Counted from the stretch's first letter, positions 7,425 through 49,589 are shown. The stretch is DNA of 64,000 nucleotides from an uncultured Acidobacteriota bacterium (GCA_963753035.1 CAVWAW010000020.1:14040-78039); one strand, 5' to 3'. Numbers and translations are program-made. The notes: generated by a model from the letters alone, not told the origin.

Positions 7425-9997
<2,573 letters not shown>

Positions 9998-25968: not shown

Positions 25969-26161
25969 GAGCCTGCACCGCATAAAATCGGCGGCGCCTT
26001 TCGGGCGGCATTTGGCCCGCTTTTCCTCTGGAAGTGGGCGCAATCCTCGACCGTCGGAGACGGATGTGTGCGAGGATACGGCGCTGATCGGCCATCGGCC
26101 GATCAGCCGAATTATCTTGCGATTCGACCGACAGGGTGCTACTAATTGATGTGTTCTCAAC

Positions 26162-26569: not shown

Positions 26570-26797
26570 CTTCGGACATCGCCAACCGCTGGCATTTGCG
26601 GTTTTCGCGGTGTTGCGGACTCGCGGTCGTTGCCGACGGCCGACGCGAGGCTGAAAGAGCTCGAATCGCGTCGTCTTTCCAACGAACTCCGCGTTCCGAC
26701 ACCGTTTCGAACCCCGCAAGGGCTCATCGTTCACCGACCGAAGAACGATAGGCCGAGCCGATTAGCGGTGATGGCAGCCATTTCGGGAGGAGTTCAA

Positions 26798-29191: not shown

Positions 29192-29209
29192 TCAAAATGG
29201 AGTGAACCG

Positions 29210-29695
29210 ATGAAAAAGTTACTGGTTTTCATTTTCGCCGCCACCCTCTCGGTCGGAGCCGCGTGGTACCGGCACGGGGACTCCGCCCACGCCATGGGGA
29301 TGGTCTCCATCAAGGGAGGACGAGCCCTTCATCCCGTCCACCTGCCTATCGGAAAGGAGCGCTACACCCTGGTGATCACCGGCACCGTCATCCCACCATA
29401 CCGAGGCGATACAAAAGTGACGGTCGATGGTGGCGAACCGATCCCGTTCATCGTCCGCGGTTCAGACCCCATCATCGATCTCGCCCTGCGCCACCGCCCG
29501 TACTTCGAGGACGGGACCCTGACCGGGCTTCAACCGCGAGACCGATTCACCATCTGGGTGGTCATGGACCCGGACGAGCCCATGCCCGCCGGCAAACGCG
29601 ATGTCACGTTCACCGACACAGCCACGAACAAACCGGTGCTCAGGATCCCCGTGATCTTCGGAGGAGGCGGGGAGGGTCAACACCATGACCACTGA
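29210..29695 (+). CDS. Secreted hypothetical protein with C-terminal His-rich tail
   Basis: Signal peptide MKKLLVFIFAATLSVGAA, a beta-rich body and the tail GGGGEGQHHDH. It overlaps the next gene by 11 nt. Confidence 0.5.
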   Translation: MKKLLVFIFAATLSVGAAWYRHGDSAHAMGMVSIKGGRALHPVHLPIGKERYTLVITGTVIPPYRGDTKVTVDGGEPIPFIVRGSDPIIDLALRHRPYFEDGTLTGLQPRDRFTIWVVMDPDEPMPAGKRDVTFTDTATNKPVLRIPVIFGGGGEGQHHDH

Positions 29696-30527
29696 AACCT
29701 ACGGCGCGACGGCCGTTTCGTTCTGGTCCAAACACCGAACCCTGATCCTCATCTCCGGCATCGTGCTCTTCCTGCCACCGCTGGCGGCCATCGTCCAGCT
29801 GACCGGAGATACGAACTTCTGCGGCCGATGGTGTCCACGGATGTTCTTCGCGTGGCGGGAGGGCCAGTCCATGAGCGCATTTCTCATGGGCTTTGTCCGC
29901 GCCTACATGGGTGTCGCCCTGGTGGCGGCAATCCTCGTCACCACGCTGGCTTTCGGCCGCTACTGGTGCAGCCATCTGTGCCCGGTGGCCTCACCCCTCG
30001 AACTCGGGAGCCGGCTGATTCCGAACAAATTCAAGCTCAATTTTTCAGCAACCCCGGCGCCGTCGTTTCGGTACGGTTATCTGCTCATCTATCTCATCGC
30101 CCCGGCCATCGGGATCGGTTCTCTGTGTTGCAACTACTGCAATTTCGCTGCGGTGCCAAGGCTCTTCGCCGCACCGTTCTCCGAGGGTGATCTCATCTAC
30201 TTCCTGAGATTCCAGGGGGTCGTCAACTTCGGTCTCCTGCTCTTCCTCGGGATCTTCGCCAAGGGCGGCCGCGCATACTGCAACCTGCTCTGTCCGGTGG
30301 GAGCGCTGGATGCGCTCTCGAACAAGATCGGGGCACGATTCGGGCGCCGAATCCGCATCGACCATGATGCGTGCACCAACTGCGGCGACTGCTCGGTGGT
30401 CTGCCCGACCTGGGCCATCGATGTCACCGATCTCACCACCATCAACCAGCTTTCCTGCATGCCGTGCCGGCAGTGCCAGGATGTCTGCCAACACGGAGCG
30501 ATTTATTATGGCAAGCCGGCGGCTTAG
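29685..30527 (+). CDS. NapH/MauN/YccM-type membrane polyferredoxin
   Basis: Multi-pass membrane protein with three CX3CP motifs (CGRWCP, CSHLCP, CNLLCP) and two C-terminal 4Fe-4S motifs (CTNCGDCSVVCP, CMPCRQCQDVC). Confidence 0.75.
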   Translation: MTTETYGATAVSFWSKHRTLILISGIVLFLPPLAAIVQLTGDTNFCGRWCPRMFFAWREGQSMSAFLMGFVRAYMGVALVAAILVTTLAFGRYWCSHLCPVASPLELGSRLIPNKFKLNFSATPAPSFRYGYLLIYLIAPAIGIGSLCCNYCNFAAVPRLFAAPFSEGDLIYFLRFQGVVNFGLLLFLGIFAKGGRAYCNLLCPVGALDALSNKIGARFGRRIRIDHDACTNCGDCSVVCPTWAIDVTDLTTINQLSCMPCRQCQDVCQHGAIYYGKPAA

Positions 30528-30793: not shown

Positions 30794-32950
30794 TCAGTAG
30801 GTCCACCCGGGGTGGTTCTTGCCGTGGCAGCGCAGAGTGCATTTGCCGTTGTGGGTTCCGGTGGACAAGTACTCCAGCGTCCCGTTGAAGGGAAAAACCA
30901 CCGAGGTGTCAAAGTTGATCAGCTTCGGATTGGCCGAGGCGTGTGGATCATGGCAGACATTGCAGGGGGTATCTTCCTCTCGAATGTGTTTGTCATGATC
31001 ATCGAAACTCGTCCCGTTGCTGATGCTGGTCCACGAGTGACATTTGAAACACAGAGCGAAATTCGCCGTGTTGAAATTCGTGCCGTCCACGGTGACATAG
31101 CGTCGTTCCAGCAGATGGGGCCAATCCGAGCCATGCGGGCCGTTGGCGCCCGAGCCTCCCGCCACCGGACCGTCGTCGTTGTTGTGACAGGTGGTGCAGC
31201 TCATGAGGCTGTTCTCGTCCCAGCCGTTGTTAATGATGAGTGACGGCACGGACGCGTTCGTTCCCTGCACCGCAACCGGGTGGTAGGACGCCATGGAACC
31301 GTCGAATTCCACCCGAACATTTGTTTCCGGGAACTGCCGCGGTGTCGGCGCTGAGGGCAGATTGGGGCTGTCGGCGTGACAACGGAAGCAGAGCTCGTAC
31401 TCATAGGATGCGGGATTCACCGCATTGCCCGCCAAGTTGACGCCCTGAACGCCCTCGAGCGGACCTGATGCGGGTCTCGGCGCTGTCGCCGCGCCGGGAA
31501 GGTTGATCCGACCCACCGCTTCGTGTGGGCCGTGGCAGTCTTCGCACTCGACATGGCGTGTCGTCACGACGGCGGACTCGCCCGGTTGGTGGACCTCCGA
31601 CGCCAACGACAATGGGTGGGCCGATGATTTCTGAAAATCGGCCCGCACATTTGCCGTCGCCGGACTGCCGTCGTGGCAGGTGAAGCAGAGGTTTTCTTCC
31701 AGATCCACCTGGAGCCGAGGATAGTCGCGATCGGTGTCGGCGTTATCGGGCCAGCCGTGCGCCTGGTGGCAGCCCGCGCAGGTCGCGGTCTGGGTCGAAT
31801 CGGTGATGGCCGGAAAGGTCGATCCGTATTGCCCACCGGGCCACAGCGCCCCTGTTGAACCGGAGTCGAAATGTGCCGCCGGAGTCGCGGTGTCGGCCAG
31901 GGTGTGGCACTCGATGCACAGCCCCACTCGATCGGCGCTCCGCAGCAACGAACCATCGTCCACCGGCGAATCATGGAGCTGATGGCAGGTCATGCAAGCG
32001 ATTCGATCGTTCGGATCGAGGGGCAGGGTCGTGGGCGGCTGGGTGCCCCCGGATGCGGGCACGGTGACGTCAACCGGGTGCGACCCGTCGCGAGCGAACT
32101 GGACGACACGGAGGCCGTGGCAGTCGTTGCACATGGCGCCCTCGTCGTTGTCGATGCGCATGAAGTGGCGGCCTTCGCCAGTTCCCGGCCCACCGTAAGG
32201 GGGCGCCGACGCATCGAAGGGTTCCTTGACCTGCTTGTGCTCGTTGTGGCAGGTCGAGCACATGGCCCGGCCGTCCTCGAGCCTGCCCGACATCTCCGGG
32301 GCGGCCGGTGGGAGGATCTCCGTCCTGACATAGATCCTCCAGACGTCGCCGGCCACGAAGGACGGCGGCGCATCGGCGTCGAAGAAACTCACGGTCACAC
32401 CTTCGTCGAGGGGAACATCGGCACCCGTGGTGAGCCCGGTCCCGCCTCCACCGAGGGTGTCGTTCCAGGAAAAAGCCGCGGTTCCGACATCTCCGGTTGA
32501 GGTCACCGTCAGGGTGTAGGTCTTGGGGAACTTGCCGTTGAACGCTCCACCGGGAACGACCTCACCCACCGAGGTGTTGCCGGCGTCCGATTTGATGTGG
32601 CCCGCCGCTCCCGCATCCCACCGGTGCGAGTTGCCCGACGGGGTCGTCCCCGACGGTAATCCTGGGCCGGGCAGTGCCTGGTCGGCGTCGATAAATGGAA
32701 AACCGCCCGCAAAGCCGCCGGCGACGTGGCAGCTCAGACACAGATTGCCGTTGCCGCCCACAGTGGTGAGGCTTCCACCGGCCGAGTTGTGCGTCGTGTG
32801 GCAACTCGAACAATCGATGTTCACCGAAGCATCATGCGCCGGGTCCAACGCCCGGGCGGCAGGAGCGACCAGAAGCAGGATCATCAGGAGAACCGGCCGC
32901 CCACCCTGGAGCCGTCGCCGCAGACTACGGGAACGTTTCAGACCAGGCAT
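30794..32950 (-). CDS. Secreted multiheme c-type cytochrome, 13 CXXCH + 1 CX3CH
   Basis: 718 aa with a signal peptide ending APAARA. Motifs in order: CSSCH, CLSCH, CSTCH, CNDCH, CMTCH, CIECH, CAGCH, CFTCH, CEDCH, CFRCH, CTTCH, CFKCH, CNVCH, then CTLRCH at the C-terminus. A 155-aa heme-free insert lies between hemes 2 and 3. Confidence 0.9.
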   Translation of the reverse strand: MPGLKRSRSLRRRLQGGRPVLLMILLLVAPAARALDPAHDASVNIDCSSCHTTHNSAGGSLTTVGGNGNLCLSCHVAGGFAGGFPFIDADQALPGPGLPSGTTPSGNSHRWDAGAAGHIKSDAGNTSVGEVVPGGAFNGKFPKTYTLTVTSTGDVGTAAFSWNDTLGGGGTGLTTGADVPLDEGVTVSFFDADAPPSFVAGDVWRIYVRTEILPPAAPEMSGRLEDGRAMCSTCHNEHKQVKEPFDASAPPYGGPGTGEGRHFMRIDNDEGAMCNDCHGLRVVQFARDGSHPVDVTVPASGGTQPPTTLPLDPNDRIACMTCHQLHDSPVDDGSLLRSADRVGLCIECHTLADTATPAAHFDSGSTGALWPGGQYGSTFPAITDSTQTATCAGCHQAHGWPDNADTDRDYPRLQVDLEENLCFTCHDGSPATANVRADFQKSSAHPLSLASEVHQPGESAVVTTRHVECEDCHGPHEAVGRINLPGAATAPRPASGPLEGVQGVNLAGNAVNPASYEYELCFRCHADSPNLPSAPTPRQFPETNVRVEFDGSMASYHPVAVQGTNASVPSLIINNGWDENSLMSCTTCHNNDDGPVAGGSGANGPHGSDWPHLLERRYVTVDGTNFNTANFALCFKCHSWTSISNGTSFDDHDKHIREEDTPCNVCHDPHASANPKLINFDTSVVFPFNGTLEYLSTGTHNGKCTLRCHGKNHPGWTY

Positions 32951-34175
32951 TCACATCTCCAGACTCGAAACCGTCATCAAAAATCGATCCCGTCGGGGGC
33001 GGGACTGTGAAATCGTCTAAACCGAAGACCTCGAGACGACCGCTGTTCACCGAGGACACGAACAACCGGTTGTGACCGTCGATGACCAGCCCGAACGGCG
33101 TCCGGAACTGCCCCGGGTGGTCTCCGATGCTGCCGATCACAGCCAACTCCGCGCCGGCTCCATCAAAGACCTTGACGTGGCTCTGGAAGGCGTCGGCGAC
33201 ATAGATTCTGCCGATCCCGTCTCCCCTCAGCCCTTGGATCCGGCCGAAGTTTCGGTCCCCGCCACCCTGAGCCCCGAAACAACGGAGGAAGGCGCCCTGC
33301 CGGTCAAAGACCTGAACCCGATCATTGTTCTGGTCACCGACAAAAACTTCGCCGTAGGGACTCACCCAGACGGCGGATGGAAAATCGAACTCTCCCGGGC
33401 CGCTTCCGCTCCCGCCGAATGATCGAAGCGGCAGACCATCCGGGTCGTAGACCTTGATCAGGTCCGCCTTGCCGTCGGCGACAAAGACCTCGCCGAAACC
33501 GGGGTCCGGATCGATGGCAATGTCGGTCGCACCCTGGAACTCACCGGCGCCGGCGCCGAGCGTGCCGCTGTGGTTCCACTGCTCGTCATAGATGTCCACC
33601 CGGCCGGTTGCATCGTCACTCACGTAGGTGTTTCCAAAATCGTCGACAGCGAGGGCGAGGGGTACACCCATTGCGCTGCGAACTTCGATGACCCGGCCGT
33701 GAACATCCATGATCACGATCGATCCCCGAGTCGGATCGGTGACGTAGACATTGTCACCGGAGTCGACGGCCAACCGCGCCGGCGCCCGCAGACTCTCCAG
33801 CTGAGAGCCCAGGACCTCGACCTCGGGAGGCGGCAGCACCGGTGTTCCATCCCAGGTGCACAGCTGTGCGGATGTCGTTCCCGGCAGGCCGAGAAAGACC
33901 ATGCCGGCAACAAAGACCACCGTCACACGCGCGATCCTGTAGGACCGCGCGGCGCCGGACCGACCTGCGCTCGCACCCCTCGGGTCGTCATCCACCACTG
34001 ATGGACGTCTCACTCCGGCTTCCTTTCTCGCAATGGCATCGTGCAAATAACCAAGAATCGTTCCGAATAATGATTGTCGCGAAAACGGCCATCCTCTTTC
34101 AGTGCCGTAGATCACCGACCCACTCGGACCCGCGAGGGTCACCGCATCCACATGAGTGGAATCGCCAAGCCTCAC
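32925..34175 (-). CDS. NHL-repeat beta-propeller protein (N-terminal TM anchor)
   Basis: Six NHL-like blades (NVYVTDPTRGSIVIMD, NTYVSDDATGRVDIYD, EVFVADGKADLIKVYD, EVFVGDQNNDRVQVFD, RIYVADAFQSHVKVFD, RLFVSSVNSGRLEVF). The start overlaps the upstream stop by 4 nt. Confidence 0.8.
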   Translation of the reverse strand: MRLGDSTHVDAVTLAGPSGSVIYGTERGWPFSRQSLFGTILGYLHDAIARKEAGVRRPSVVDDDPRGASAGRSGAARSYRIARVTVVFVAGMVFLGLPGTTSAQLCTWDGTPVLPPPEVEVLGSQLESLRAPARLAVDSGDNVYVTDPTRGSIVIMDVHGRVIEVRSAMGVPLALAVDDFGNTYVSDDATGRVDIYDEQWNHSGTLGAGAGEFQGATDIAIDPDPGFGEVFVADGKADLIKVYDPDGLPLRSFGGSGSGPGEFDFPSAVWVSPYGEVFVGDQNNDRVQVFDRQGAFLRCFGAQGGGDRNFGRIQGLRGDGIGRIYVADAFQSHVKVFDGAGAELAVIGSIGDHPGQFRTPFGLVIDGHNRLFVSSVNSGRLEVFGLDDFTVPPPTGSIFDDGFESGDVNAWSETFP

Positions 34176-35302
34176 TGGCGCCTGCTGTCCGGTCTGTCTT
34201 CCGGTCGCGGCGCCGCCTGGAAGCCCGTAGGATGCCTGCCAAGGCCGCTATCGCGCGCGGGATCGGCAAACCTCGGGTGACCCTTGCTGGTGAACATGGG
34301 TCCATAGCCGAGGGGGTCGTGATCGACTCCGTGGCAGGTGAGATAGCAACCCCCCATCCCCGCGGCCTCGGAAGTGTATTCGAGCCGCCCCGAACTCGAG
34401 GCCAGCACACCGGTGATCGCGGTGGGCTCATTGAAGCGGATGAGGGCCCGCCCAGCGGTCGCTCCGTGCGAATCGTGGCACAGAACGCACGCGGTTCGTT
34501 GGTCCACGACGTGCAGGCGGTGATACGGAAAGGGGTCGGAATCGAGGACGATCTTTCGATCGTGGCACTGATAGCACAGAGCGTAGGAGCTCTCCGATTC
34601 CGGCTGCCCATCCTGCAATGAGTAGTCCGCGCCGAGCAAACCCGGCACTCGACTCCCGTGCGGTCCGCGCGCACCTCGAACATCATCGTTGGTGTGGCAG
34701 TCCGAACAGTTGATCAGGGAATCCGACGTCAAAGGAGGCAAAAGGCTCGGGACCTCCCCGACACCGATGGCGAGCACCGGATGGAACGACGGATTCCTCG
34801 AATCGAAGAGCAGACCGATGTCATGAGGATCCGAGACCATGGCGGACCGGGTCCCATGACACGAAAGGCAGAGGTTCGCCTCGCTCGTGAAACCCCGTTT
34901 CGGCGAAGGTTTCTGCCGCCCGAGATCGAGGCCGGTTCCGTCCAAGCCCTGGAGCCGGCCGATACCATGAACGCTGTGGCAGTCGACACAACTCGCCCCG
35001 CGGTGGATCACCGGTTTGACCATTTCCACACGGATGTCCGCAGGATCGGCGCCGGAGTCCATTCCGAGTGCTTCCCGCCGGCCGGGCTCGGCCGCACCCG
35101 TCTGGTGGCATTCGATGCACATGGTGTCTCTGTCGGTCTTCAACATGGGGGTTCGGGAGGCCCCGTGACCCTGATGGCAAGGCGTACAGTCTTCGGCGAG
35201 CATCCCCGGCTCGAAGTGCTTGCCGAGATCAACGGCCGAAGCCACCGGGGCGATCAGGACAATCGCCACCGCGGCAGTTCTCAGGAATGACAGGCGATGC
35301 AT
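34172..35302 (-). CDS. Secreted multiheme c-type cytochrome, 7 CXXCH + 1 CX3CH
   Basis: Start taken at MHRLSFLRTAAVAIVLIAPVASA within ORF 34172-35374. Motifs: CTPCH, CIECH, CVDCH, CLSCH, CSDCH, CYQCH, CVLCH, then CYLTCH. The C-terminal half is paralogous to the end of the 718-aa cytochrome. Confidence 0.9.
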   Translation of the reverse strand: MHRLSFLRTAAVAIVLIAPVASAVDLGKHFEPGMLAEDCTPCHQGHGASRTPMLKTDRDTMCIECHQTGAAEPGRREALGMDSGADPADIRVEMVKPVIHRGASCVDCHSVHGIGRLQGLDGTGLDLGRQKPSPKRGFTSEANLCLSCHGTRSAMVSDPHDIGLLFDSRNPSFHPVLAIGVGEVPSLLPPLTSDSLINCSDCHTNDDVRGARGPHGSRVPGLLGADYSLQDGQPESESSYALCYQCHDRKIVLDSDPFPYHRLHVVDQRTACVLCHDSHGATAGRALIRFNEPTAITGVLASSSGRLEYTSEAAGMGGCYLTCHGVDHDPLGYGPMFTSKGHPRFADPARDSGLGRHPTGFQAAPRPEDRPDSRRQ

Positions 35303-35934
35303 AGCTCCCCCGGTTTTGCGGTGAGAAGGAAATCTCCGTACGGATCGCGGTGGGGATCGTGGCAGGTTGTGCACTGGATGCGATTCTCTTTATCGAGCTT
35401 CGCGAGGGGGTGATTCCGCATCTCCGACAACGATCTCAAGGGGACATCGCCCTTGGAGTTATTGGTTGTGACCAGGTGGTCCGTCACCATGAAGGAGACC
35501 GGGTGATCACCGCTCAGGTCACGGCCGAGATTCGATTCCGACGTCGATGGCATGGTGGTGATACCACCACGCATCTCGATCCGACCCGACGACACCGTCG
35601 ATCCGAGCGCGATGGTTCCGTCGTGGCAGGATAGGCAGAGTTTCGAGGAACCATTGGGCTGCGGCGCTTCCCCCGAGGAACTGTAGGCATCCATGGTCTC
35701 GCTCCAGTACATCTGGTAGCTGCCCCCCGGATTCTCCCGATTCCACAACGGCGCCTGGAAGACGGCGTTGTGGGTGGTGTGGCAGAAGACACACACCCTG
35801 GTCTCGGACACCGCTCTGACGGTACCGGGACCGGTCACTGAAAGATTGTGGGAGGTGTCGCGCACGCTTTCCTGGGACGAGGCCAGAACAGCCAGACCCA
35901 ACACCATCGTCAGGGTGATCGCTGCGCGTCTCAT
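35281..35934 (-). CDS. Secreted tetraheme c-type cytochrome (paralog 2)
   Basis: 217 aa with signal peptide ...LAVLASS. Motifs: CVFCHTTHN, CLSCHDG, CTTCHDPH, CIACHS*. It is collinear with the 39770-40381 product and has an ATGA overlap with the upstream NHL gene. Confidence 0.9.
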   Translation of the reverse strand: MRRAAITLTMVLGLAVLASSQESVRDTSHNLSVTGPGTVRAVSETRVCVFCHTTHNAVFQAPLWNRENPGGSYQMYWSETMDAYSSSGEAPQPNGSSKLCLSCHDGTIALGSTVSSGRIEMRGGITTMPSTSESNLGRDLSGDHPVSFMVTDHLVTTNNSKGDVPLRSLSEMRNHPLAKLDKENRIQCTTCHDPHRDPYGDFLLTAKPGELCIACHS

Positions 35935-36938
35935 TTCAGGTTTTCCCTTCGCTGGTAACGCATGAGTTGGACTCGTCGATTCCCGGTATCCGCAACGGCC
36001 ATATGACCGCGGCGATCGATGGCGAGGCCTCCGGGGGTCCAGAATTCCCCGGCCCCGAAACCACGACCTCCGATGATCAGGAGAAGCTGTCCATCCTGGT
36101 CAAAGACCTGAACCGCATCAAAGCGTGCGTCGGACACATAGAGGTGGCCGTCGGGATCGATCGCCAGCCCCTTGGCCAGGGCAAAATGACCAGACCCATC
36201 CCCGTGCTGGCCGAACTGAGAGAGATAATGAAGTTTGGCGTCGAGTTGCTGGATTCGGAAATTGAAGGGGTCGAGGACCCAGACAGTCCCGTCCGGCGCT
36301 TCGGCGACGGCGGTCGGAGTGTTGAACTCGCCATCGCCGGTTCCACGCCTACCTGACCTGGCCACTTCGAGTCCTCCCGTGCTGACACGAACCACCTGAC
36401 CGGTCTCGGCGTCGGTGATCAAAACGTCGCCATTCGCACACACGGCGAGCCCACCACAACGCTGCACAAAGCCTTGACTCACGACCTCGCCGAGCAGCAC
36501 GCCTTTGTGGTCGAAAGCGATGACCGCTCCGAGTTCCCGATCGGCAACCAGGATCTGATCCCCATCCGGGGTCGCGGCGATTGCGACCGGTTGCATGCCT
36601 TCAGGCAGCTTCAACCTGATCGCGGCGCTTCCATCGGTCTTGCCGCCGATCACCCAGTTCATGGCCGTGTCCACCACGAAGACCCGGTCTTTGGCGAGGG
36701 CCACGGCAACGGGCCGCGGCAGAGGCAACGTCTGCTGACGCCGCTCGGCGCCGGCCACTGCACGGAAGATCCGTCCCAGCCCCTTGGGGCGGAACTCATC
36801 GACGGTGGCCTGCCAGGCAACCTCGGCCGGAGCCTCTGCCGAAGGCGGCGGCCAGACCGGGCCTTCAGCACACATCCCCGGTGACGGCAGGCAACCCGCT
36901 CCGAGAAACACCACGAGTGCGATTCGTCGCACCCTCAT
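35931..36938 (-). CDS. NHL-repeat beta-propeller protein, lipobox-like signal (paralog of 40725-41774)
   Basis: N-terminus is MRVRRIALVVFLGAGC. NHL blades include QILVADRELGAVIAFD, VWVLDPFNFRIQQLD, HLYVSDARFDAVQVFD and HMAVADTGNRRVQLM. It has an ATGA overlap with the upstream barrel gene. Confidence 0.8.
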   Translation of the reverse strand: MRVRRIALVVFLGAGCLPSPGMCAEGPVWPPPSAEAPAEVAWQATVDEFRPKGLGRIFRAVAGAERRQQTLPLPRPVAVALAKDRVFVVDTAMNWVIGGKTDGSAAIRLKLPEGMQPVAIAATPDGDQILVADRELGAVIAFDHKGVLLGEVVSQGFVQRCGGLAVCANGDVLITDAETGQVVRVSTGGLEVARSGRRGTGDGEFNTPTAVAEAPDGTVWVLDPFNFRIQQLDAKLHYLSQFGQHGDGSGHFALAKGLAIDPDGHLYVSDARFDAVQVFDQDGQLLLIIGGRGFGAGEFWTPGGLAIDRRGHMAVADTGNRRVQLMRYQRRENLK

Positions 36939-38695
36939 CTTCGATGATCTCCGGCTCTGAATTGGAACAATCGCCTCACACCGACCCAGATCCTTCGGAA
37001 CCGGCGCTGTTCGAGTCCCGCCTCCTCGGTCCGCTGCTCTCGGACCCGAGCATAGAACGAGAGCTTGGCATAGTTGAATCGAAGTCCGAGCTCGGCGAAT
37101 TCATAGGTTCCGATATGATCGAAGATCCTGCGTTCCTCGGAGCGTACAAAACCGTCGAAGAGCAACCAATACGTCGGCCCCCAGCTGATGTTCGCCTGCC
37201 ACACATCGGTCAGAGTCGGGACTTCGCTTCCGACCATCTCAAACCGGTCGGCGGAGGCTCCGATGGTCACCCGTCCGAGCGCGATGTTGAGCTGGGCACG
37301 GGCGACATCCTCCTCGATCTCGAATCCCCGGTCCACCCGTACCCGGTTGCGATAGTCCAAGTCGAGCGACAACGCGGTTCGTTGGCTGGGTCGATACTCG
37401 AATATCACCCGTCCGCGGTAGCGCCGCCGGTCTAAACCGGCGAGAAACGCGCTCCCGATGGGAGGTTCGCCGATGCTGTAGTCCGGTATCGAGAGTTGGT
37501 TGTCAAAGTACTCGACGTCGAGAGTCACGCTCGAGCGAGGAAGCTGGTAGCGAACCGACCCGAAGATCAGGGAGCCGAAGGCCGATTCCTGTTCGAGCTC
37601 CTCCGGATCGGCCCTGAGATAGGTCACCCGGGGGTAGAGCGACACCCACCAACGGCCGTACTGCTTGCCCCATCTCAGTCCGAGGCCCGCCCGCGGCTGG
37701 GTCAGCCGTAAACCGTCACCGTATTCGTTGCTGAGGTAGCCGAGTTCGGCCTCGAGAAAGGTCGAGGGACTCAGCGGAGCGACGAGGTTGGCCGAGAGGT
37801 TACCGGTAATGATCTCTTCAACCGGGTCGGTCTCGACGCGGACCACGCGCATATCCGCCCTCAGGTCCCAGAAACCGAGTTGACTGTATCGGTGGCGCAA
37901 CTGGTTTCTGAACAGGTAGTTTGTCGTCCACGGCGAGAAATCACCGTGATTCTGGGCGGAGCGGTAGACATTTCCGATCAGGTCGGTGTGCCAGTAGACC
38001 TTTCCGGTCCGGTTGACGTCGAGGTCGAACCGTCCCGAACCGATCTCCTGCTGAAGACCACCTCCAAAGAGGTCGTTCTCCTTCCAAAGAAGCTGCAGCA
38101 TGGCATCGACTTTGCCGACGGCCGCCTGGGTGGACAGCTCGCTCCAGGCGGTGTCTTCATCACGCAGGGTGTCCGGCTGGTCCGCGTTGAAGCTCTGCTC
38201 CCAATGCCGAAGATTGAGACGGAACCACTGGCCGCCGAGAGCTCTCAGGCCATACCGCTGATAGTCTCGCACGCCATCGACGATCGCTCCCTGCTGGAGA
38301 CCCGTGACATCGGTACCCTGGCGACCCGCACCGACTTCGAGCGAGATCGCGCGGTTGTTGAAGAACCGGAGCGACCCGTCGTAATAGGTGTCGTCGACGT
38401 CGTTGTCCTGGGCGCCGGAAATCGTCTGATTCGACAGGGTTTTTGCAACACTGGCATCAAAGGTCATGAATCTCGGATCGACGAGGTGCCCGGCGACGGC
38501 CGCCCAGAGAACGGTCTGGAGATTCGATCTCTCGGCGGAAATGCCTCCGTATTCCTGTGAATCGCTCAGGTATTCCGCCGAGAGGCCAAGCGTGAAGGTC
38601 GCCCCGCTCGAGGCCCATGCGGACCCGGCGCAGCACCAAAGACAGATCACTGCGCAGATCCGGCGAGCGACGGGGTTCAGAATCTTTCGGCGCAC
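36935..38695 (-). CDS. Predicted outer-membrane beta-barrel protein
   Basis: 586 aa with a signal peptide ending SAWA and no Cys-heme motif. It has a long series of short alternating hydrophobic/polar strands rich in Y/R/G/D (FTLGLSAEYLS, LRFFNNRAISLEVGAG, RFDLDVNR, VSLYPRVTYLR, LSLDLDYRNRV, LGLRFNYAKLSFYARV) and a near-terminal ...IWVGVRRLFQF. Confidence 0.55.
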   Translation of the reverse strand: MRRKILNPVARRICAVICLWCCAGSAWASSGATFTLGLSAEYLSDSQEYGGISAERSNLQTVLWAAVAGHLVDPRFMTFDASVAKTLSNQTISGAQDNDVDDTYYDGSLRFFNNRAISLEVGAGRQGTDVTGLQQGAIVDGVRDYQRYGLRALGGQWFRLNLRHWEQSFNADQPDTLRDEDTAWSELSTQAAVGKVDAMLQLLWKENDLFGGGLQQEIGSGRFDLDVNRTGKVYWHTDLIGNVYRSAQNHGDFSPWTTNYLFRNQLRHRYSQLGFWDLRADMRVVRVETDPVEEIITGNLSANLVAPLSPSTFLEAELGYLSNEYGDGLRLTQPRAGLGLRWGKQYGRWWVSLYPRVTYLRADPEELEQESAFGSLIFGSVRYQLPRSSVTLDVEYFDNQLSIPDYSIGEPPIGSAFLAGLDRRRYRGRVIFEYRPSQRTALSLDLDYRNRVRVDRGFEIEEDVARAQLNIALGRVTIGASADRFEMVGSEVPTLTDVWQANISWGPTYWLLFDGFVRSEERRIFDHIGTYEFAELGLRFNYAKLSFYARVREQRTEEAGLEQRRFRRIWVGVRRLFQFRAGDHRR

Positions 38696-39759
38696 TCTCG
38701 AACCTCAATCGCCGCCTGGTCGACCAACTCCAGTTCGAATTCGTCGAGTCGGCGCTGTCTCTTTTCGCTGGTGATCCGTTCCTCCACCGCATCCCGCACG
38801 GTGGCGAGCTCGATCGGTTGTGATGGTCGGGTGCTGATCACTTGCAGGACATGGTAGCCGTGAATCGATTTCACCGGCTCGATCACCTCTCCGACCTCCG
38901 CTGAAAAGACCGCCTCATCGGCCGCAGGCAACAGCGATCCGCGGTGGACAAAGCCGATGTCTCCGACCTCATCCTGAAATCGAGGGGAGAGGCTCTCGAG
39001 ATCCGACTCACCCACTTCGAGCAACGAGGTGTCACCCCGACGGGCGTCTTCGGCAAGTAGGCGCGCGTGTTGCTCGGACTCCCGCCACTCCTCCTGGGTC
39101 GCAGACGGTGGAACGTTGACCAGGATGTGAACCACGTGACGGGCTTCCGGGGTCACATAGTCATCGCTGTTGAGGATGAAGAAGACCTCAACCTCGATCT
39201 CGGTTGGAGGTGTAACGCTGGAAACGATGGTCTCGTCAACCGCGTCGGCTACGGCATCCCGGTGGAGGGCCAGCCGGAATTCATCTTCGGCGATTCCCTT
39301 GGTCTCGAGGGCGGCGCGGTACTGCGCTTCGCTGGTAAATCGCGCCCGCACTTCCTGCCACGCCGCCGCTTCGGCCGCTTCATCGACATCGACGGGGTTT
39401 TCTTGCGCCCACTGCCGCTTGAGTTCTTTCAGCACCAGGGCCTCGATAGACTCGCACCTGAGTTCGGATTTTCGCTCAGTTGAGATCTGCCGATGGTAGC
39501 TTCCAACCGAAATCCGCACGGCCAGTTCGCGATCGAGTTCCCACGCCTCGAGCTGTCGGCCATTGACGGTCGCCACCGAATCGACCACCGCGGCTGACTC
39601 GCCAACCGAAGCGACAAAATGCATGGCGGCCGCTAAAATCACGACCGCGTTGAGCAACAGCCTGCCCGATGCGGCTTTCCCATGAGCGGCAGAAACCACC
39701 CCGAAAAAGGCACGGGGGGCGAAACGATCGCCCCCCGTGTCGCGAGCTTGCGTCATCAC
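38677..39759 (-). CDS. Parvulin-type peptidyl-prolyl cis-trans isomerase (SurA/PrsA-like), membrane-anchored
   Basis: N-terminal TM followed by a SurA-N-like helical region. PpiC domain: ARHVVHILV...GDIGFVHRGSLLPAADEAVFS.EVGEV..PVKSIHGYHVLQV. Confidence 0.8.
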   Translation of the reverse strand: MMTQARDTGGDRFAPRAFFGVVSAAHGKAASGRLLLNAVVILAAAMHFVASVGESAAVVDSVATVNGRQLEAWELDRELAVRISVGSYHRQISTERKSELRCESIEALVLKELKRQWAQENPVDVDEAAEAAAWQEVRARFTSEAQYRAALETKGIAEDEFRLALHRDAVADAVDETIVSSVTPPTEIEVEVFFILNSDDYVTPEARHVVHILVNVPPSATQEEWRESEQHARLLAEDARRGDTSLLEVGESDLESLSPRFQDEVGDIGFVHRGSLLPAADEAVFSAEVGEVIEPVKSIHGYHVLQVISTRPSQPIELATVRDAVEERITSEKRQRRLDEFELELVDQAAIEVRECAERF

Positions 39760-39769
39760 CAGGAGCGGA

Positions 39770-40381
39770 CTACTTCGCGTGGCAACGGATGCACATCAGG
39801 CTCCCGGCCGGATCTTCCACCAGAAGGGACGGGTTGCTCCCGACGGCCCCGCCGTTGTGCACGTCGTGGCAGGTAGCGCACTCCACCTTGTTGGCGAAGA
39901 GATAGTCCGCAATGTTCCCATCGGCGTAGACCGACGACGTGGGGTTGAGTTCGGGATCCTGACCCGCGCCCGTTCCTGCGCTGTAGGTCACGCTGATCGG
40001 GTGGTCGTTCGACAGATCGGTTCCAACCAAGGCTCCACCGGTGATGTAGGTATTGCCGCTGGTGTTGCCGCCGAAGTTCTCGAGCGCAACGGTGCCGTCG
40101 TGACAGGAAAGACACGCCTTGGAGACATCGGCCGGTTGCGGATCGACCACTCCATCGAGGGTGTCACTGGTGTACATCTGGAACGTCGCCGTGGTCACCT
40201 CGTGGTTCCACAGCGGCGCAACAAAGGCGGTCTCACCATCGTGGGTCGTGTGGCACGGCAGGCAGATGGTGCCGTTCGACCACGTTTCGCTACTGAAATC
40301 GTGTGCGCTGCCGGTAATCTGGGCGCTGGCGAAACCTGCGCTCAGGACAATGCAGAAGCTCACTACAAGCGCTCTCTTCAT
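39770..40381 (-). CDS. Secreted tetraheme c-type cytochrome (paralog 1)
   Basis: 203 aa from the ATG at 40381 (ggaggg 8 nt upstream) within ORF 39770-40507. Signal peptide is MKRALVVSFCIVLSAGFASA. Motifs: CLPCHTTHD, CLSCHDG, CATCHDVHN, CIRCHAK*. Five further His residues are available as distal ligands. Confidence 0.9.
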   Translation of the reverse strand: MKRALVVSFCIVLSAGFASAQITGSAHDFSSETWSNGTICLPCHTTHDGETAFVAPLWNHEVTTATFQMYTSDTLDGVVDPQPADVSKACLSCHDGTVALENFGGNTSGNTYITGGALVGTDLSNDHPISVTYSAGTGAGQDPELNPTSSVYADGNIADYLFANKVECATCHDVHNGGAVGSNPSLLVEDPAGSLMCIRCHAK

Positions 40382-40502
40382 GATTTTTGCCCTCCGTTCT
40401 CGAATCCAAAGAAACTCGATTCGAACCTTGCTGCCGGCGTGGGCCCTTCGCGTCAGATTGCGAACGGCCCGCAGGTTCGGTCGAATCTCATCAACTGACT
40501 GG

Positions 40503-40531
40503 AGCATATTTTGGATCTATTCCTAAATCAA
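40503..40531 (-). promoter_or_regulatory. Sigma70-like promoter candidate for the tetraheme-led operon
   Basis: On the minus strand: TTGATT (40531-40526), a 17-nt spacer, then TATGCT (40508-40503), about 120 nt upstream of the ATG and inside a 343-nt AT-richer gap. Sequence match only. Confidence 0.3.
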
Positions 40532-40724
40532 TGCTTGCACGCATGAACACGTGACGAAGCACACATAACTGACCGGGTTTTTGTCATGTACATGTAATGG
40601 ACCCATGAAGTAAAGACACCGTCTCAATAGCATGCACTCCAATCTCGCCCGATGATTCCGATCAAATCGCCGTTGGGCGCCGAATCGATATTCCGACCTC
40701 GCGCATCGTGATCTCGCCGGCTGA

Positions 40725-41774
40725 TCACTGCGGTGAACCAAGGAACCGAAAGAGCTGTACGCGGTGGTTGAGCGTATCGGCGACGACGAGGAGGTCGTCA
40801 CGCATGGCAATCCCCGAAGGCAGAGAGAATTGGCCCGGCCCCTGTCCGGGCTCTCCGAACCACATGAGCAATTCGCCGTCGAGGTTGAACATCTGAACGA
40901 GCTGAAACGCTCCATCCACCTCATACAACACGCCATTGGCGGCGTCGGCCACCAAACCACGAGGTCGGTTCAGGTCTCCGGGATTGTCACCCGCACTGCC
41001 GAATATCAAATCGAGATCACCGGCGGGATCGAAGACCTGAATCCGGAAATTCAGGTAGTCCGAGACATAAAGATAGCCATCGGCGTCAAAGGTCGCCGCC
41101 ACGGGAAAGTTGAATTCGCCCTCTCGGGCGCTGTGCTCATTGCCACCCCAGGTCATGACGGTTTCGCCGGTCGCGGTGTCGATCACATCGACCGCGTGGC
41201 GTTCGGTGTCGCACACCGCGATCCGATCGCCACCGGCCGTCACCGCAATCGAGGTCGGCCGGTCGAAAACCGATGCACCGCCATAGACCATCTTGAACTG
41301 GAGGGCCGCATCGTACGCGTAGACCGCCTGCGAGCTCGCGTCGCTGACATATAAAGTACCGTCATCGGCCACCGCGACGCCAACGGGTTGGAAGAGCGAG
41401 CCCGGAGCCGATCCCCGGAAGAGCTCGAACCGCTGTTCATCCTGGTTGATGATCACGACTCCCCGGAGATGTTGATCGACAACATAGAAGGTCTGGTCCG
41501 GGCCGATGGCAACTGCGGTCGGCGCCATCAGCGACGCCTCGACCTCCTCGTCGCCGACCAGGACCTTTTTCCAGGTGCGTTTCCGTTTGTCGACATCGCC
41601 TCGGGTGCCGATCGCACCGATCCATTCGATCACCGGTTCGGCCGGAGCCGGAGGATAGACAACCGATGTCGGCTCCGATGCGACTCGCTTGTCCGAAGGC
41701 GCACCACCGGAACTGCAGGACCAGAGGAGCGCTGCGACCACTGGAAAAAGAATGTATTTTGCTCGATGGCCCAT
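40725..41774 (-). CDS. NHL-repeat beta-propeller lipoprotein
   Basis: Lipobox AALLWSC. NHL blades include TFYVVDQHLRGVVIIN, TLYVSDASSQAVYAYD, YLYVSDYLNFRIQVFD, VLYEVDGAFQLVQMFN and LLVVADTLNHRVQLFR. Confidence 0.8.
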   Translation of the reverse strand: MGHRAKYILFPVVAALLWSCSSGGAPSDKRVASEPTSVVYPPAPAEPVIEWIGAIGTRGDVDKRKRTWKKVLVGDEEVEASLMAPTAVAIGPDQTFYVVDQHLRGVVIINQDEQRFELFRGSAPGSLFQPVGVAVADDGTLYVSDASSQAVYAYDAALQFKMVYGGASVFDRPTSIAVTAGGDRIAVCDTERHAVDVIDTATGETVMTWGGNEHSAREGEFNFPVAATFDADGYLYVSDYLNFRIQVFDPAGDLDLIFGSAGDNPGDLNRPRGLVADAANGVLYEVDGAFQLVQMFNLDGELLMWFGEPGQGPGQFSLPSGIAMRDDLLVVADTLNHRVQLFRFLGSPQ

Positions 41775-41794
41775 CAGTCAGTTCTCGCTCTCGT

Positions 41795-43546
41795 TCATTT
41801 GGGGTGGCATGCGATGCACAGCTCCGCCTGGTTGGTCGCTTTCCATGTAAACAACTTCGGGTTCGGCGCAGCATGGGGTTCGTGGCACAGCCTACAGGTC
41901 ATTTCCTGCCCGACCAGCGATTTCGCCACCTCGGTCCGACCCTCGCCATCGATGAGCCCCGAAACCGGATGTTCGGGGATCGGGTGGTCCTTTCGAAGAA
42001 AGGGATCGAGGCCGATCATTTCGAGATCCCGCGCGCGCTCGCCTCGCAACACGAATCCACCGTCAAGCCTGATGTTGCCGTTGGAGTCCACGTTGACCCT
42101 GTTCTTCAGGTGACACCCGTTGCACAGGTCGTTCCCCGACGCCCGTAGGAGATTCTCATTCGGGCCACCGTGGGGCTGGTGACAACTGTGGCATCCGATC
42201 CAAGAGATCGCCCGGTGCACGCTTTCGCCCTCGGCACCCGCCTGGTCCTCATGGCAGTCGAGGCAAACGCCGCCACCCGCGGCCCGCAGGAGTTTCGGCT
42301 GACGGGATGCATGGGGAGAATGGCAGTCCACGCACTCCATCGCCTCCATGGCGGGGTGGGGCACGGCGGCCGTCGCAATGGTCTCCGCCACGTCGTCGTG
42401 GCACATTTCGCACAACGCATTACCGCCACCGCCCTCGAGTTCCTGCGCCGTGCCTCCATGGCAATTGGTGCAGCCCTCGCGGAACGGCGGGTGGATCGAT
42501 CCGTTGGCGATGAGCGGCTTGCTCGACGAACCGTGGGGATCGTGGCAATCGAGGCAGTCGGTGGTCGCCATATCCGCCCCGAAGTGCAGCCGTTGAAGAT
42601 CGGGGTCCGCCGAATCGTGGCAGGTGCGACAGAGTTCGTCCCCGTCATCGAGCAACATCGCGGGCCGGTCGGAAGAATGCGCGTCGTGACATCCGTCGCA
42701 GCCATCTTCCAGCGCTGCGTGGGCGCCGGGGCCCTTCGCTCGCTCGGCGATGTCCGGGTGGCACGAGAAACAGAGCTCGCCGCCGTCGGCTTTGAGCAGG
42801 TGGGGTTGATCCGCAAGATGGGGATCGTGGCATTCGACGCACCGGCCCTGTTTGAGCGCGGTGTGCACCACTCGACCGCTCGTGTCCGCGAAATCGCCGT
42901 GGCACGCCTCACAGAGGGCGCCACCCTCCTGCAGTAAACGCACCCGTGTCCCACGCGGTGTTCGATGGCACGCATCGCACGAACCCTCCTCAAAGGGCAC
43001 GTGTCGCGTCGATCCACGCAGCATGTGGGCATTCTTCGATCCGTGCGCCTCGTGGCAGGTTCGGCAATCGGCGCGCCGCACGGGAATCGGGTGCGCGGCG
43101 TCGGTGTCATCCGCGTCGTGACACTCGGCGCAGATCCGGCCCGCCTCTACGCTGAGCATGGCGTCAAAATCGGTGCCGTGCGGACCATGACAGTTTCCAC
43201 AGTCATCGACCACCGGAGCGTGCGGCACGGCAATTTCACCGTTCGCGGCCGCCGTCAGACCATCGTGACAGACCAGACACAGCGCAGATCCGGACTCCAC
43301 CAACGCCACACTCATTTCACTTTCGCCGGCTTCAAAGACGTGGCAGCTCAGACAGTCGTCGACCGCGGGGGGGTGGGGAACCCGTACCGCGACGACCTCG
43401 TCGTGGCAGGTTTCACAGGTCGCCTTTTCAGGATCCACGAGCGTCGGGTGGTCCGCGGCCACGCCGGTTTCCGCGACTATGCCGGAGATCAGCACAATCG
43501 CCAGGCAGAAAACCATGCTGAAGGCGGGTCGGTGTTGTGATTCCAT
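41795..43546 (-). CDS. Secreted multiheme c-type cytochrome with 21 CXXCH motifs
   Basis: 583 aa with an N-terminal signal/anchor FSMVFCLAIVLISGIVA. There are 21 CXXCH (CETCH ... CIACHPK*), arranged mostly as pairs of type LCxxCHD ... (D/E)CxxCHx(P/A)H. Confidence 0.9.
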   Translation of the reverse strand: MESQHRPAFSMVFCLAIVLISGIVAETGVAADHPTLVDPEKATCETCHDEVVAVRVPHPPAVDDCLSCHVFEAGESEMSVALVESGSALCLVCHDGLTAAANGEIAVPHAPVVDDCGNCHGPHGTDFDAMLSVEAGRICAECHDADDTDAAHPIPVRRADCRTCHEAHGSKNAHMLRGSTRHVPFEEGSCDACHRTPRGTRVRLLQEGGALCEACHGDFADTSGRVVHTALKQGRCVECHDPHLADQPHLLKADGGELCFSCHPDIAERAKGPGAHAALEDGCDGCHDAHSSDRPAMLLDDGDELCRTCHDSADPDLQRLHFGADMATTDCLDCHDPHGSSSKPLIANGSIHPPFREGCTNCHGGTAQELEGGGGNALCEMCHDDVAETIATAAVPHPAMEAMECVDCHSPHASRQPKLLRAAGGGVCLDCHEDQAGAEGESVHRAISWIGCHSCHQPHGGPNENLLRASGNDLCNGCHLKNRVNVDSNGNIRLDGGFVLRGERARDLEMIGLDPFLRKDHPIPEHPVSGLIDGEGRTEVAKSLVGQEMTCRLCHEPHAAPNPKLFTWKATNQAELCIACHPK

Positions 43547-44311: not shown

Positions 44312-44343
44312 GGATTCGTTCAGCGAGACCCGATTAGCTACAA

Positions 44344-44380
44344 TCCTCCGGAGTCGCGCCCAACGCGCGACTCCGGAGGA
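44344..44380 (+). promoter_or_regulatory. 15-bp perfect hairpin that includes the Shine-Dalgarno of mtaD
   Basis: tcctccggagtcgcg (44344-44358) pairs with cgcgactccggagga (44366-44380) across a 7-nt loop. The ggagga in the 3' arm ends 4 nt before ATG 44385. Confidence 0.6.
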
Positions 44381-44384
44381 TCGT

Positions 44385-49514: not shown

Positions 49515-49589
49515 TGGCTGGGGCGGAAGGATTCGAACCTTCGAATGCCGGATCCAAAGACCGGTGGCTTACCACTTGCCGACGCCCCA
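49515..49589 (-). tRNA. tRNA-Gln (anticodon TTG)
   Basis: Minus-strand sequence is TGGGGCGTCGGCAAGTGGTAAGCCACCGGTCTTTGGATCCGGCATTCGAAGGTTCGAATCCTTCCGCCCCAGCCA. It has a 7-bp acceptor stem, a 3-bp D stem, anticodon loop CTTTGGA, a T arm GAAGG/CCTTC with TTCGAAT, and an encoded CCA. It closely resembles E. coli tRNA-Gln. Confidence 0.9.

Follow-up and report, generated by a model that had tools for sequence, protein, structure and literature searches.

This study investigated a 64-kb window (the whole stretch of DNA analysed, 64,000 nt) from an uncultured bacterium of the Acidobacteriota, the source lineage probably being Thermoanaerobaculia, in which ten minus-strand open reading frames (ORFs), named g1 to g10, occupy positions 30794-43546. 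An earlier reading of the same DNA, referred to here as the initial annotation, had proposed that these genes form an extracellular electron-transfer or cytochrome-filament system, and all ten ORFs were recovered at the coordinates it first gave. We consider it very probable that the locus is an extracellular electron-transfer module. The ten genes and two non-coding features, with positions counted from the first letter of the window, are as follows.

41795..43546, minus strand: g1, 21-haem cytochrome, predicted periplasmic and MtrA/DmsE-like, with 11 paired-CXXCH units and a Sec signal (Pfam, TIGR03508, PDB)
40725..41774, minus strand: g2, NHL six-bladed beta-propeller lipoprotein, pairs with g1 (NHL E 4e-24; lipobox LLWSC)
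40382..40724, minus strand: non-coding, 343 nt, upstream of g3, the probable g3 promoter or 5' leader (gap also in relatives, 273-628 nt)
39770..40381, minus strand: g3, A-type OmcE-family tetrahaem cytochrome, 203 aa, signal peptidase I (SPI) signal (full-length 9YUQ and 7TFS matches)
39701..39739, minus strand: terminator- or attenuator-like hairpin with T-run, 30 nt after the g3 stop (terminator scan, folding)
38677..39699, minus strand: g4, SurA-N plus parvulin peptidyl-prolyl isomerase (PPIase), predicted periplasmic chaperone (probable GTG start at 39699, longest ORF from 39759; Rotamase, Rotamase_2, SurA_N_3)
36935..38695, minus strand: g5, 586-aa predicted outer-membrane beta-barrel (AlphaFold2, PDB fold match, synteny)
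35931..36938, minus strand: g6, NHL beta-propeller, probable lipoprotein, pairs with g7/g8 (NHL E 3e-22; lipobox-type Cys)
35281..35934, minus strand: g7, B-type OmcE-family tetrahaem cytochrome, 217 aa, SPI-type signal (7TFS over the full length; AlphaFold2)
34172..35302, minus strand: g8, octahaem cytochrome, 7 CXXCH and 1 CX3CH, own signal peptide (motif count, Pfam, paralogy to g10)
32925..34013, minus strand: g9, NHL/DUF5128 beta-propeller, pairs with g10 (longest ORF from 34175; Pfam/NCBIfam; length in relatives)
30794..32950, minus strand: g10, 14-haem cytochrome, 13 CXXCH and 1 CX3CH (motif count; PF22113)

The five cytochromes carry 51 haem motifs, comprising 49 CXXCH and two CX3CH (g1, 21; g3, four; g7, four; g8, seven plus one; g10, thirteen plus one). 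CXXCK was found in none of the five, CXXCH was found in no ORF elsewhere in the window on a crude ORF map, and the histidine count of each cytochrome suffices for bis-His ligation. Pfam and NCBIfam recognized Paired_CXXCH cytochromes, three NHL propellers and a SurA_N plus Rotamase PPIase, and placed no catalytic subunit and no NapC/NrfH/NrfD-type or other quinol-dehydrogenase family above threshold in the locus; a link to the quinone pool is not encoded within it. A lipobox was absent from all five cytochromes. In these respects, the motif count, the domain calls, the lack of a catalytic or NapC/NrfH/NrfD-type protein and the lack of a cytochrome lipobox, the initial annotation is upheld, as it is by AlphaFold2 for the 586-aa barrel. 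Its description of g2 as the sole NHL lipoprotein needs correction, since g6 too has a lipobox-type cysteine that is kept in most orthologs (present in the window and in the related loci L003, L004 and L005).

It can be seen from PDB sequence searches that both tetrahaem cytochromes match the OmcE family over their full length: g7 matched 7TFS (E 3.8e-31) and 9YUQ (1e-19), and g3 matched 9YUQ (E 5.7e-20) and 7TFS (E 7e-18). The entry 7TFS is the OmcE nanowire of Geobacter sulfurreducens (its reconstructed chain is 98% identical to P0172, the G. sulfurreducens OmcE, and the Foldseek label agrees), while 9YUQ is probably the D. soudanensis (WTL) OmcE of Petersen et al., being a protein of 218 aa in 16 chains that is 39% identical to Geobacter OmcE, versus the 41% reported for D. 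soudanensis OmcE. Both of these solved structures of the tetrahaem family are filaments. Four CXXCH motifs and four distal histidines (H29, H55, H144 and H195, numbered as in g7) do not vary among g3, g7, G. sulfurreducens OmcE and the aligned homologs (n = 14 and n = 100), and Petersen et al. describe the signature of OmcE homologs as four CXXCH plus four further conserved histidines completing bis-His ligation. The AlphaFold2 model of g7 (pLDDT 83) is mostly coil, with 7TFS as its sole significant PDB fold match (TM-score 0.64/0.68, E 1.3e-9). The two proteins are 33% identical to each other, and by distances g3 falls among the A-type tetrahaems that stand alone in other phyla, and g7 among the B-type. 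These full-length homologies support the earlier proposal of an extracellular electron-transfer and filament cluster akin to the Geobacter omcE/omcS neighbourhoods, the filament itself being the part that we infer. Separately, the sequence P0041 (73% identical to g7) has been deposited under both 'Gemmatimonadota bacterium' and 'Acidobacteriota bacterium', suggesting mis-binned contigs of metagenome-assembled genomes (MAGs) bearing the cluster.

The cluster extends well beyond the window. Homologs of the barrel g5 reach 92% identity in the closest case, and one of them comes from Candidatus Sulfomarinibacteraceae (Acidobacteriota, Thermoanaerobaculia). A Sulfomarinibacteraceae MAG (locus L001) carries the full set of ten in the order of the window, between different flanks, the core is conserved in relatives at 53-57% barrel identity, and in module form it is found in more than 12 phyla. 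Loci of the wider family were obtained by scanning a genome collection, which yielded at least 80 (L007-L086), and all counts given here are among the loci listed. They belong to Planctomycetota, Calditrichota, Bacteroidota, Ignavibacteria/Chlorobiota, Verrucomicrobiota, Zixibacteria and Eisenbacteria, as well as Binatia, Nitrospirota, Acidobacteriota, Myxococcota, Pseudomonadota and Desulfobacterota. A recurrent order was recognized by tblastn with the ten proteins, in which one module consists of an A-type tetrahaem, an NHL protein, a small cytochrome (mostly pentahaem) and a haem-free ORF of about 680 aa with an aromatic C-terminus, and the other of an NHL protein followed by a cytochrome that aligns with g7 and, further along, with g8/g10; either module may come first.

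With regard to gene boundaries, the initial annotation had described the last eight genes as coupled at spacings of -26 to +10 nt, values that were taken from the longest ORFs. In the gene calls of relatives the PPIase measures 321-344 aa and the third NHL protein (g9) 357-361 aa, and because these are shorter, the starts probably lie at GTG 39699 for g4 and at about 34013 for g9. With the revised starts, the g3-g4 gap becomes about 70 nt, holding a strong hairpin, and the g8-g9 gap about 150 nt. True overlaps remain at g4/g5 (19 nt), g5/g6 (4 nt), g6/g7 (4 nt), g7/g8 (22 nt) and g9/g10 (26 nt). The picture of eight translationally coupled genes is therefore overstated, standing at these five junctions and failing at g3-g4 and g8-g9, and the transcription units are better read as three, namely g1-g2, g3 alone, and g4-g10 with a further gap before g9.

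The isolation of g3 between its long upstream region and its hairpin deserves particular attention. The stem of the g3-g4 hairpin (39739-39711) has 12 bp, 10 of them G-C, with a folding free energy (dG) of -31 kcal/mol, and ranks among the roughly six strongest of 15,988 windows across the 64 kb. Equivalent hairpins with unrelated stem sequences lie 3' of the g3 ortholog in L001, L003, L073 and L083. When the 120 nt behind the A-type gene were examined in 37 loci of other phyla, the median for the most stable hairpin was -29.4 kcal/mol, versus -16.5 kcal/mol in control windows, and a value of -25 kcal/mol or lower is attained by 81% of the A-type genes versus 5% of the controls (Mann-Whitney p = 5e-18). 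At Geobacter omcE, likewise, the gap upstream measures 577 nt, and a canonical intrinsic terminator follows 3 nt behind the stop codon. In contrast, g7 shares 4 nt with g6 and 22 nt with g8; it is g3, not g7, that has the omcE-like layout. The long 5' gap and the hairpin, as at Geobacter omcE, therefore indicate that g3 is a separately, and probably highly, expressed subunit gene.

Near-consensus sigma54 -24/-12 elements were detected upstream of the g3 ortholog in four related loci, scoring 12/12 in L073 (about 5320-5336), 11/12 in L004 (about 8140-8155), 11/12 in L087 (about 6232-6247) and 10/12 in L003 (about 670-686), against a background in which 2 of 973 sites score 10 or more. A HisKA plus sigma54-activator two-component pair adjoins the cluster in L004 and L087. 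Neither g1 nor g3 is preceded by a sigma54 element in the window or in L001 (g3 region 6/12), a sigma70 scan of the window returned no coding-strand promoter, and Rfam gave no match in the locus, the g3 upstream region included. A CRP/FNR-like palindrome of the form TGTGT-N6-TCAC (TGTGTGCTTCGTCACG) lies at 40550-40565 on the minus strand, about 170 nt upstream of g3, and is kept in L001 as TGTGTGCGTGGTCACA. No other site in the window fits without a mismatch, but the pattern shows no enrichment (7 matches vs 5 expected), and we treat it as a lead only.

The cytochrome g1 and the barrel g5 are the candidates for an outer-membrane conduit. In g1, Paired_CXXCH_1 occurs 11 times (E 4e-94), and the protein scores 200.8 bits against TIGR03508 (DmsE-family; cut-off 192.2), a score that is summed over seven stretches of a protein twice the model size. 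It also matches PDB chain 6R2Q_A (E 7e-15), which we take to be MtrA. The 21 haems of g1 are kept in three other Thermoanaerobaculia loci, L001, L004 and L087, and its best match in the Geobacter omcE locus is an 11-haem cytochrome of 370 aa with 30% identity. For g5, the AlphaFold2 modelling that the initial annotation suggested as a check produced a signal peptide and an all-beta protein of about 28 strands (pLDDT 77), that is, a large beta-barrel, whose best PDB fold match is MtrB, 6R2Q_B (E 1.2e-8, TM-score 0.44-0.48, 9% identity), followed by LptD, ushers and TonB-dependent transporters. Sequence matches to g5 in Pfam, NCBIfam and PDB were none, and an exhaustive profile search with the barrel alignment found 26 representatives only among 1.84e9 proteins, and therefore no bridge from g5 to a named family. 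At the same position in other phyla, 52 haem-free ORFs form one family by phmmer, and the g5 group aligned with the profile of these 52 members at 95.8% probability by hhalign (E 7e-9, 524 columns), with 0.3% for a reversed-sequence control. On these profile comparisons, g5 is a divergent member of a cluster-specific barrel family of many phyla.

Additionally, the pair g7 and g8 corresponds to a single protein elsewhere. In 66 of the 73 listed other-phylum loci, a g7-like and a g8-like part are contained in one ORF of about 570 aa with 11 CXXCH and one CX3CH, giving 12 haems; L012:9983-11590 and L023:9986-11707 are examples of this fused dodecahaem. Separate g7 and g8 genes were noticed only in the lineage of the window (L001, L003-L005), L087, L073 (Acidobacteriota), L083 (Nitrospirae) and L009 (Brocadiia), and a position-based collection of B-type ORFs picked up just three. 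Because g8 has its own signal peptide, the difference is a true fission or fusion and not a frameshift. Judged by alignment, g7 corresponds to the N-terminal domain of a widespread dodecahaem, here standing alone, and g8 to its C-terminal half.

The octahaem g8 is also paralogous to the last ~330 residues of g10 (residues 391-718; 31% identity, E 5e-38), and g10 residues 516-673 match PF22113, which is MtrC/MtrF domain II/IV-like, at 42.2 bits (cut-off 30). In g10, haems 2 and 3 are separated by a haem-free, Gly/Thr-rich insert of about 150 residues (residues ~77-230; window 32261-32720) that returned no family match and one spurious PDB match only; it could be a surface-exposed or substrate-binding domain. 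The genes g9 and g10 travel jointly, being inverted in L005 (5652-8793) and missing from L003, L004 and L087. In L059 and L066, which come from Verrucomicrobia and Victivallales MAGs, the NHL plus 14-haem pair lies downstream of the dodecahaem gene. This pair behaves as a mobile module.

The lipobox LLWSC of g2 is kept in its orthologs, including the Geobacter NHL protein, and is followed by a WPPxP..PR(I/V)xW-type motif; lipobox and motif are shared between the NHL proteins of the locus and that of Geobacter, a canonical lipobox being absent from g9. All three match the NHL protein of the Geobacter omcE cluster (1e-43 to 4e-31), g2 best (1e-43). An NHL gene stands directly before the dodecahaem or g7-type gene in 44 of the 45 listed loci with enough flank, whereas the PPIase is confined to the lineage of the window, L073 and L083, lying directly upstream of the barrel in L001-L005, L073 and L083 and being absent from L087 (a Thermoanaerobaculia MAG with otherwise the same order) and most phyla. 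On this distribution of sequences the PPIase is a lineage-specific addition. Expression of the OmcZ nanowire in Shewanella is known to require a prolyl isomerase, that of the omcZ operon.

From the homology, fold, ligand conservation, synteny, transcription-unit layout and lipoboxes, all of which were observed computationally, we infer where the proteins reside, a complex of g1 with g5, polymerisation, the roles of the NHL and PPIase proteins and the direction of electron flow. We favour, with reasonable though not strong confidence, a self-contained OmcE-type outer-membrane module for extracellular electron transfer that works in the following manner. All ten proteins would be Sec-exported. 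The cytochrome g1, about two MtrA lengths, would carry electrons across the periplasm and insert into the ~28-strand barrel g5 to make a trans-outer-membrane conduit, g5 being the conduit sheath or a secretion and anchor pore. Outside the cell, electrons would pass to the OmcE-family cytochromes. Of these, g3 would be the omcE equivalent, probably made in excess given the upstream region of its own and the terminator-like hairpin that follows it, and would polymerise into a haem-stacked filament via inter-subunit His-haem ligation, while g7+g8 and the 14-haem g10 would be cytochromes of the cell surface or of the base. An NHL propeller for each large cytochrome (g1-g2, g6-g7/g8 and g9-g10), at least two of them lipoproteins, may provide scaffolds or assembly factors, and the SurA-like g4 may chaperone the coil-rich cytochromes, the barrel or both. 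A more specific division of labour, which we hold to be rather unlikely, would have g3 as the bulk, over-expressed subunit and g7 as the filament base, an initiator or an adaptor wiring the g3 polymer to g8, the barrel and the g1 conduit; g7 would then be a module freed by fission from the dodecahaem and still translationally coupled to g6 and g8.

Several observations count against the OmcE-type module just described. In the lineage of the window, the function of the cluster is predicted from genes, and signal peptides and lipoboxes were called by eye and by regular expression. Identity of g3 and g7 to Geobacter OmcE is only 32-35%, the OmcE-like family exceeds 5,000 members at E<=1e-5, and, to our knowledge, only two of its members have been shown to polymerise. 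The solved OmcE subunits lie at roughly equal distances from the A and B types, and all three groups retain the eight ligands, so that sequence does not decide which tetrahaem is the omcE equivalent. In neighbour-joining bootstraps, the strict A, B, A+OmcE and B+OmcE bipartitions were recovered in 0 of 200 replicates, the position-defined sets being heterogeneous; owing to this and to the equidistance of OmcE, we do not claim g3 or g7 as an OmcE ortholog by phylogeny. The B-type domain retains the same eight ligands though it is fused within a 12-haem protein in most phyla, and OmcE homology alone therefore does not imply a filament. The hairpin behind g3 could stabilise mRNA instead of attenuating transcription, and neither the sigma70 nor the sigma54 scan identified a promoter in the window itself. 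Moreover, tblastn and jackhmmer found no link between g5 and the 752-aa protein adjacent to Geobacter omcE, and hhalign gave 0.6-1.6% with a profile made of the single Geobacter sequence; the correspondence of the two proteins is positional and structural only. Weighing these points, we regard the formation of a filament by g3, g7 or both as evenly balanced.

Chief among the alternatives is a discrete porin-cytochrome complex of the Mtr/Pcc/DFE type that forms no filament; in it, g1 would sit in g5 and NHL proteins would hold monomeric g3, g7, g8 and g10 at the surface, the OmcE-like tetrahaems being small surface or shuttle cytochromes only. We consider this arrangement possible but clearly the less probable. 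It draws on the B-type OmcE-like domain lying within a 12-haem protein in those 66 of 73 loci, on the recovery of 12- and 14-haem proteins with equal haem counts from the outer-membrane fraction of D. ferrophilus (PMC5815863), on the MtrA-like g1 and the MtrB-like fold of g5, and on the MtrC/MtrF domain II/IV-like region of g10 above the Pfam cut-off. It fits poorly with the layout of g3, a separate unit with a hairpin behind, as expected of a subunit made in excess and as found at the proven omcE. It also has to reckon with 7TFS and 9YUQ both being filaments and with the cytochromes having no lipobox for MtrC-like tethering.

Chains of bis-His multihaem cytochromes are generally reversible, and sequence therefore cannot decide the direction of electron flow. 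Uptake of electrons from FeS, Fe(0), reduced minerals or a syntrophic partner, in place of metal-oxide reduction, is a second alternative for the main use of the locus; it fits either architecture, and we hold it tentatively, as a minority view. In its favour, the D. ferrophilus clusters of the same composition are induced by donor starvation and tied to cathodic uptake (PMC5815863), and Candidatus Sulfomarinibacter is predicted to respire sulfite or sulfate and sulfur intermediates in sulfidic sediments (Flieder et al., bioRxiv 10.1101/2020.10.01.322446). On the other side, Thermoanaerobaculum aquaticum, which bears a syntenic cluster, reduces Fe(III) and Mn(IV), and reduction is what Flieder et al. 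propose. A periplasmic respiratory enzyme, such as a multihaem reductase acting with accessory proteins on a soluble compound of sulfur or nitrogen, is highly improbable and was rejected: weak, sub-threshold similarity to NrfB, NrfH and octahaem-type models is set against the lack of CXXCK or another catalytic haem motif and of any catalytic family above cut-off, sufficient histidines for bis-His ligation in all cytochromes, the conservation of a ~28-strand outer-membrane barrel in the cluster and the homology to the extracellular OmcE.

The genes flanking the locus are unrelated to it. On one side lies a convergent plus-strand group at 26630-30527, probably without relation to the cytochromes, consisting of a TonB-dependent receptor with CarboxypepD_reg, a 161-aa protein without a family match and a NapH-like Fer4_5 polyferredoxin membrane protein. 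The last of these (29685-30527) was considered as a neighbouring quinol dehydrogenase and rejected, as it is convergent, belongs to the gene group of the TonB receptor and does not stand beside the cluster in relatives. On the opposite side lie S4-domain, amidohydrolase, PilZ and Usp genes. The strongest hairpin of the window (44337-44384, minus strand; -42.8 kcal/mol, 20-bp stem) falls within the 73 nt that separate the S4-domain gene from the amidohydrolase gene and is probably a bidirectional terminator. A GC-rich, perfectly palindromic repeat of about 40 nt with the core CCGCNGGGACGCCANAGCGTCCCNGCGG was found in three copies (10233-10260, 11161-11188 and 62050-62077), where none is expected by chance; its hairpins reach -33 to -43 kcal/mol, and it looks like an intergenic element of the REP (repetitive extragenic palindromic) type. 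A tRNA-Gln(ttg) at 49515-49589 (minus strand) was found by both ARAGORN and Rfam, while a 96-nt tRNA-Leu(gag) at 25881-25976 (minus strand), called by ARAGORN only, below the Rfam gathering threshold and overlapping an ORF, may be a false positive.

If the OmcE-type module is real, OmcE-type extracellular wires would extend to Acidobacteriota of the class Thermoanaerobaculia, which are abundant in marine sediments, and the locus would supply a molecular basis for the metal-oxide respiration proposed for Thermoanaerobaculia, or for electron exchange with minerals or partners. The comparative results may be worth more than the locus itself, comprising a two-module architecture that recurs, along with a barrel family specific to the cluster, in more than 12 phyla, a subunit-like transcription layout of the A-type gene held in common with Geobacter omcE, and natural fission and fusion variants of the dodecahaem. 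They nominate genes for the study of nanowire initiation, anchoring and secretion, namely the g3-type versus the g7-type cytochromes and the three cognate NHL propellers, and the cultured T. aquaticum is suited to such tests. Petersen et al. left the initiation, anchoring and termination of OmcE filaments open, with no candidate in the omcE operons of Desulfuromonadia. Should g7 be the initiator or adaptor, it would answer that question. The fused dodecahaem, seen in more than 12 phyla, would then by the same reasoning be a general 'socket' for filaments of A-type tetrahaems, and OmcE-type nanowires would reach far beyond the five phyla reported.

Among the known systems, MtrCAB (6R2Q) resembles the locus in the MtrA/DmsE-like g1, in g5 with MtrB as its best fold match and in the MtrC/MtrF domain II/IV-like region of g10. 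It differs in that the window has no MtrC-type decahaem lipoprotein (TIGR03507 scores far below cut-off), that g1 has 21 haems rather than 10, and that g5 is without sequence similarity to MtrB (9% in the fold alignment); the NHL propellers, the PPIase and the OmcE-type tetrahaems of the window have no Mtr counterpart. For the osc operon, the companion of omcS in G. sulfurreducens, OscH is reportedly a prolyl isomerase and OscD a beta-propeller. The passages of PMC13194489 that cite Shen et al. 2025 list the folding factor OscH, the secretion proteins OscE/F/G and the morphology factor OscD, and to that extent bear out the remark in the initial annotation about the companions of omcS and omcE. 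As far as those passages go, the likeness is one of domain-level equivalents only, with g4, the NHL proteins g2, g6 and g9, and g5; unlike that system, the window has no OmcS-like hexahaem gene, and no OmcS entry appeared among the PDB sequence matches of the five cytochromes.

A further likeness is seen in D. ferrophilus IS5, where the clusters DFE_448-451 and DFE_461-465 interleave multihaem cytochromes with two NHL propellers and predicted small extracellular cytochromes (Deng et al. 2018, PMC5815863). The initial annotation had held that porin-cytochrome conduits lack interleaved NHL propellers, and these clusters are an example already described. The 12-haem DFE_449 and the 14-haem DFE_461 were found in the outer-membrane fraction and read as an integral outer-membrane complex stabilised by NHL propellers, and starvation for an electron donor induces the clusters, which are linked to electron uptake from a cathode (PMC5815863). 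By this published description only, 12 haems equal g7+g8 and 14 haems equal g10; the dodecahaem is split in the window, and the DFE system was studied for electron uptake.

Within the lineage itself, Flieder et al. reported syntenic clusters of cytochromes and beta-barrels in marine Acidobacteriota MAGs and in T. aquaticum, a cultured reducer of Fe(III) and Mn(IV) oxides, and proposed them as metal-oxide reduction machinery. Their Table S4 gives the order as multihaem cytochrome, NHL protein, extracellular cytochrome c, PPIase-like protein, hypothetical beta-barrel proteins and multihaem cytochromes, and by this table and their Fig. S7A the Candidatus Sulfomarinibacter and Thermoanaerobaculum loci have the same consecutive order as the window. 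The locus type had therefore already been catalogued in the lineage, and its novelty was overestimated in the initial annotation. It is a known type, the gene order of the lineage having been published in 2020 and the cluster type being familiar from omcE, DFE and partly the osc operon. The differences lie in interpretation: Flieder et al., whose work predates the OmcE structure, did not tie the tetrahaems to OmcE nanowires, labelled the NHL proteins 'beta-barrel' and did not remark on the dodecahaem being split, on the pair of tetrahaem paralogs or on the hairpin behind g3. In the literature searched, we found no link of Thermoanaerobaculum to OmcE or nanowires, and the OmcE identity of both Acidobacteriota tetrahaems, the split dodecahaem, the pan-phylum barrel family and the subunit-like layout of the A-type gene did not appear.

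Finally, the omcE locus of G. sulfurreducens (L006, 20.7 kb) contains ResB, CcsB, 11-haem and 8-haem cytochromes, an NHL lipoprotein, OmcE, a 752-aa haem-free protein ending in FF, and glycosyltransferases. In a comparison with this neighbourhood, which the initial annotation had recommended, g1, the three NHL proteins, g3 and g7 found matches, the barrel found none in sequence, and the PPIase is missing there. The differences are that Geobacter has one tetrahaem with 11- and 8-haem partners, whereas the window has two paralogs with 21-, 8- and 14-haem partners; that the PPIase is present in the window only and the glycosylation gene set in Geobacter only; and that the two barrels have no detectable sequence similarity. 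Acidobacteriota are also not among the five phyla that Petersen et al. list for OmcE. The likenesses comprise an OmcE-family tetrahaem with the identical ligand signature and a fold common to the g7 model, an NHL lipoprotein with the same N-terminal motif, an 11-haem cytochrome resembling g1, a large haem-free outer-membrane barrel with an aromatic end beside the subunit gene, and the long 5' gap with a 3' hairpin. Petersen et al. 2025 described a minimal omcE cluster of two multihaem cytochromes, two beta-propeller lipoproteins, OmcE and a large beta-barrel, all adjacent; every one of these parts is present in the window locus, which adds to them a third NHL protein, a second tetrahaem, the PPIase and the 14-haem protein.

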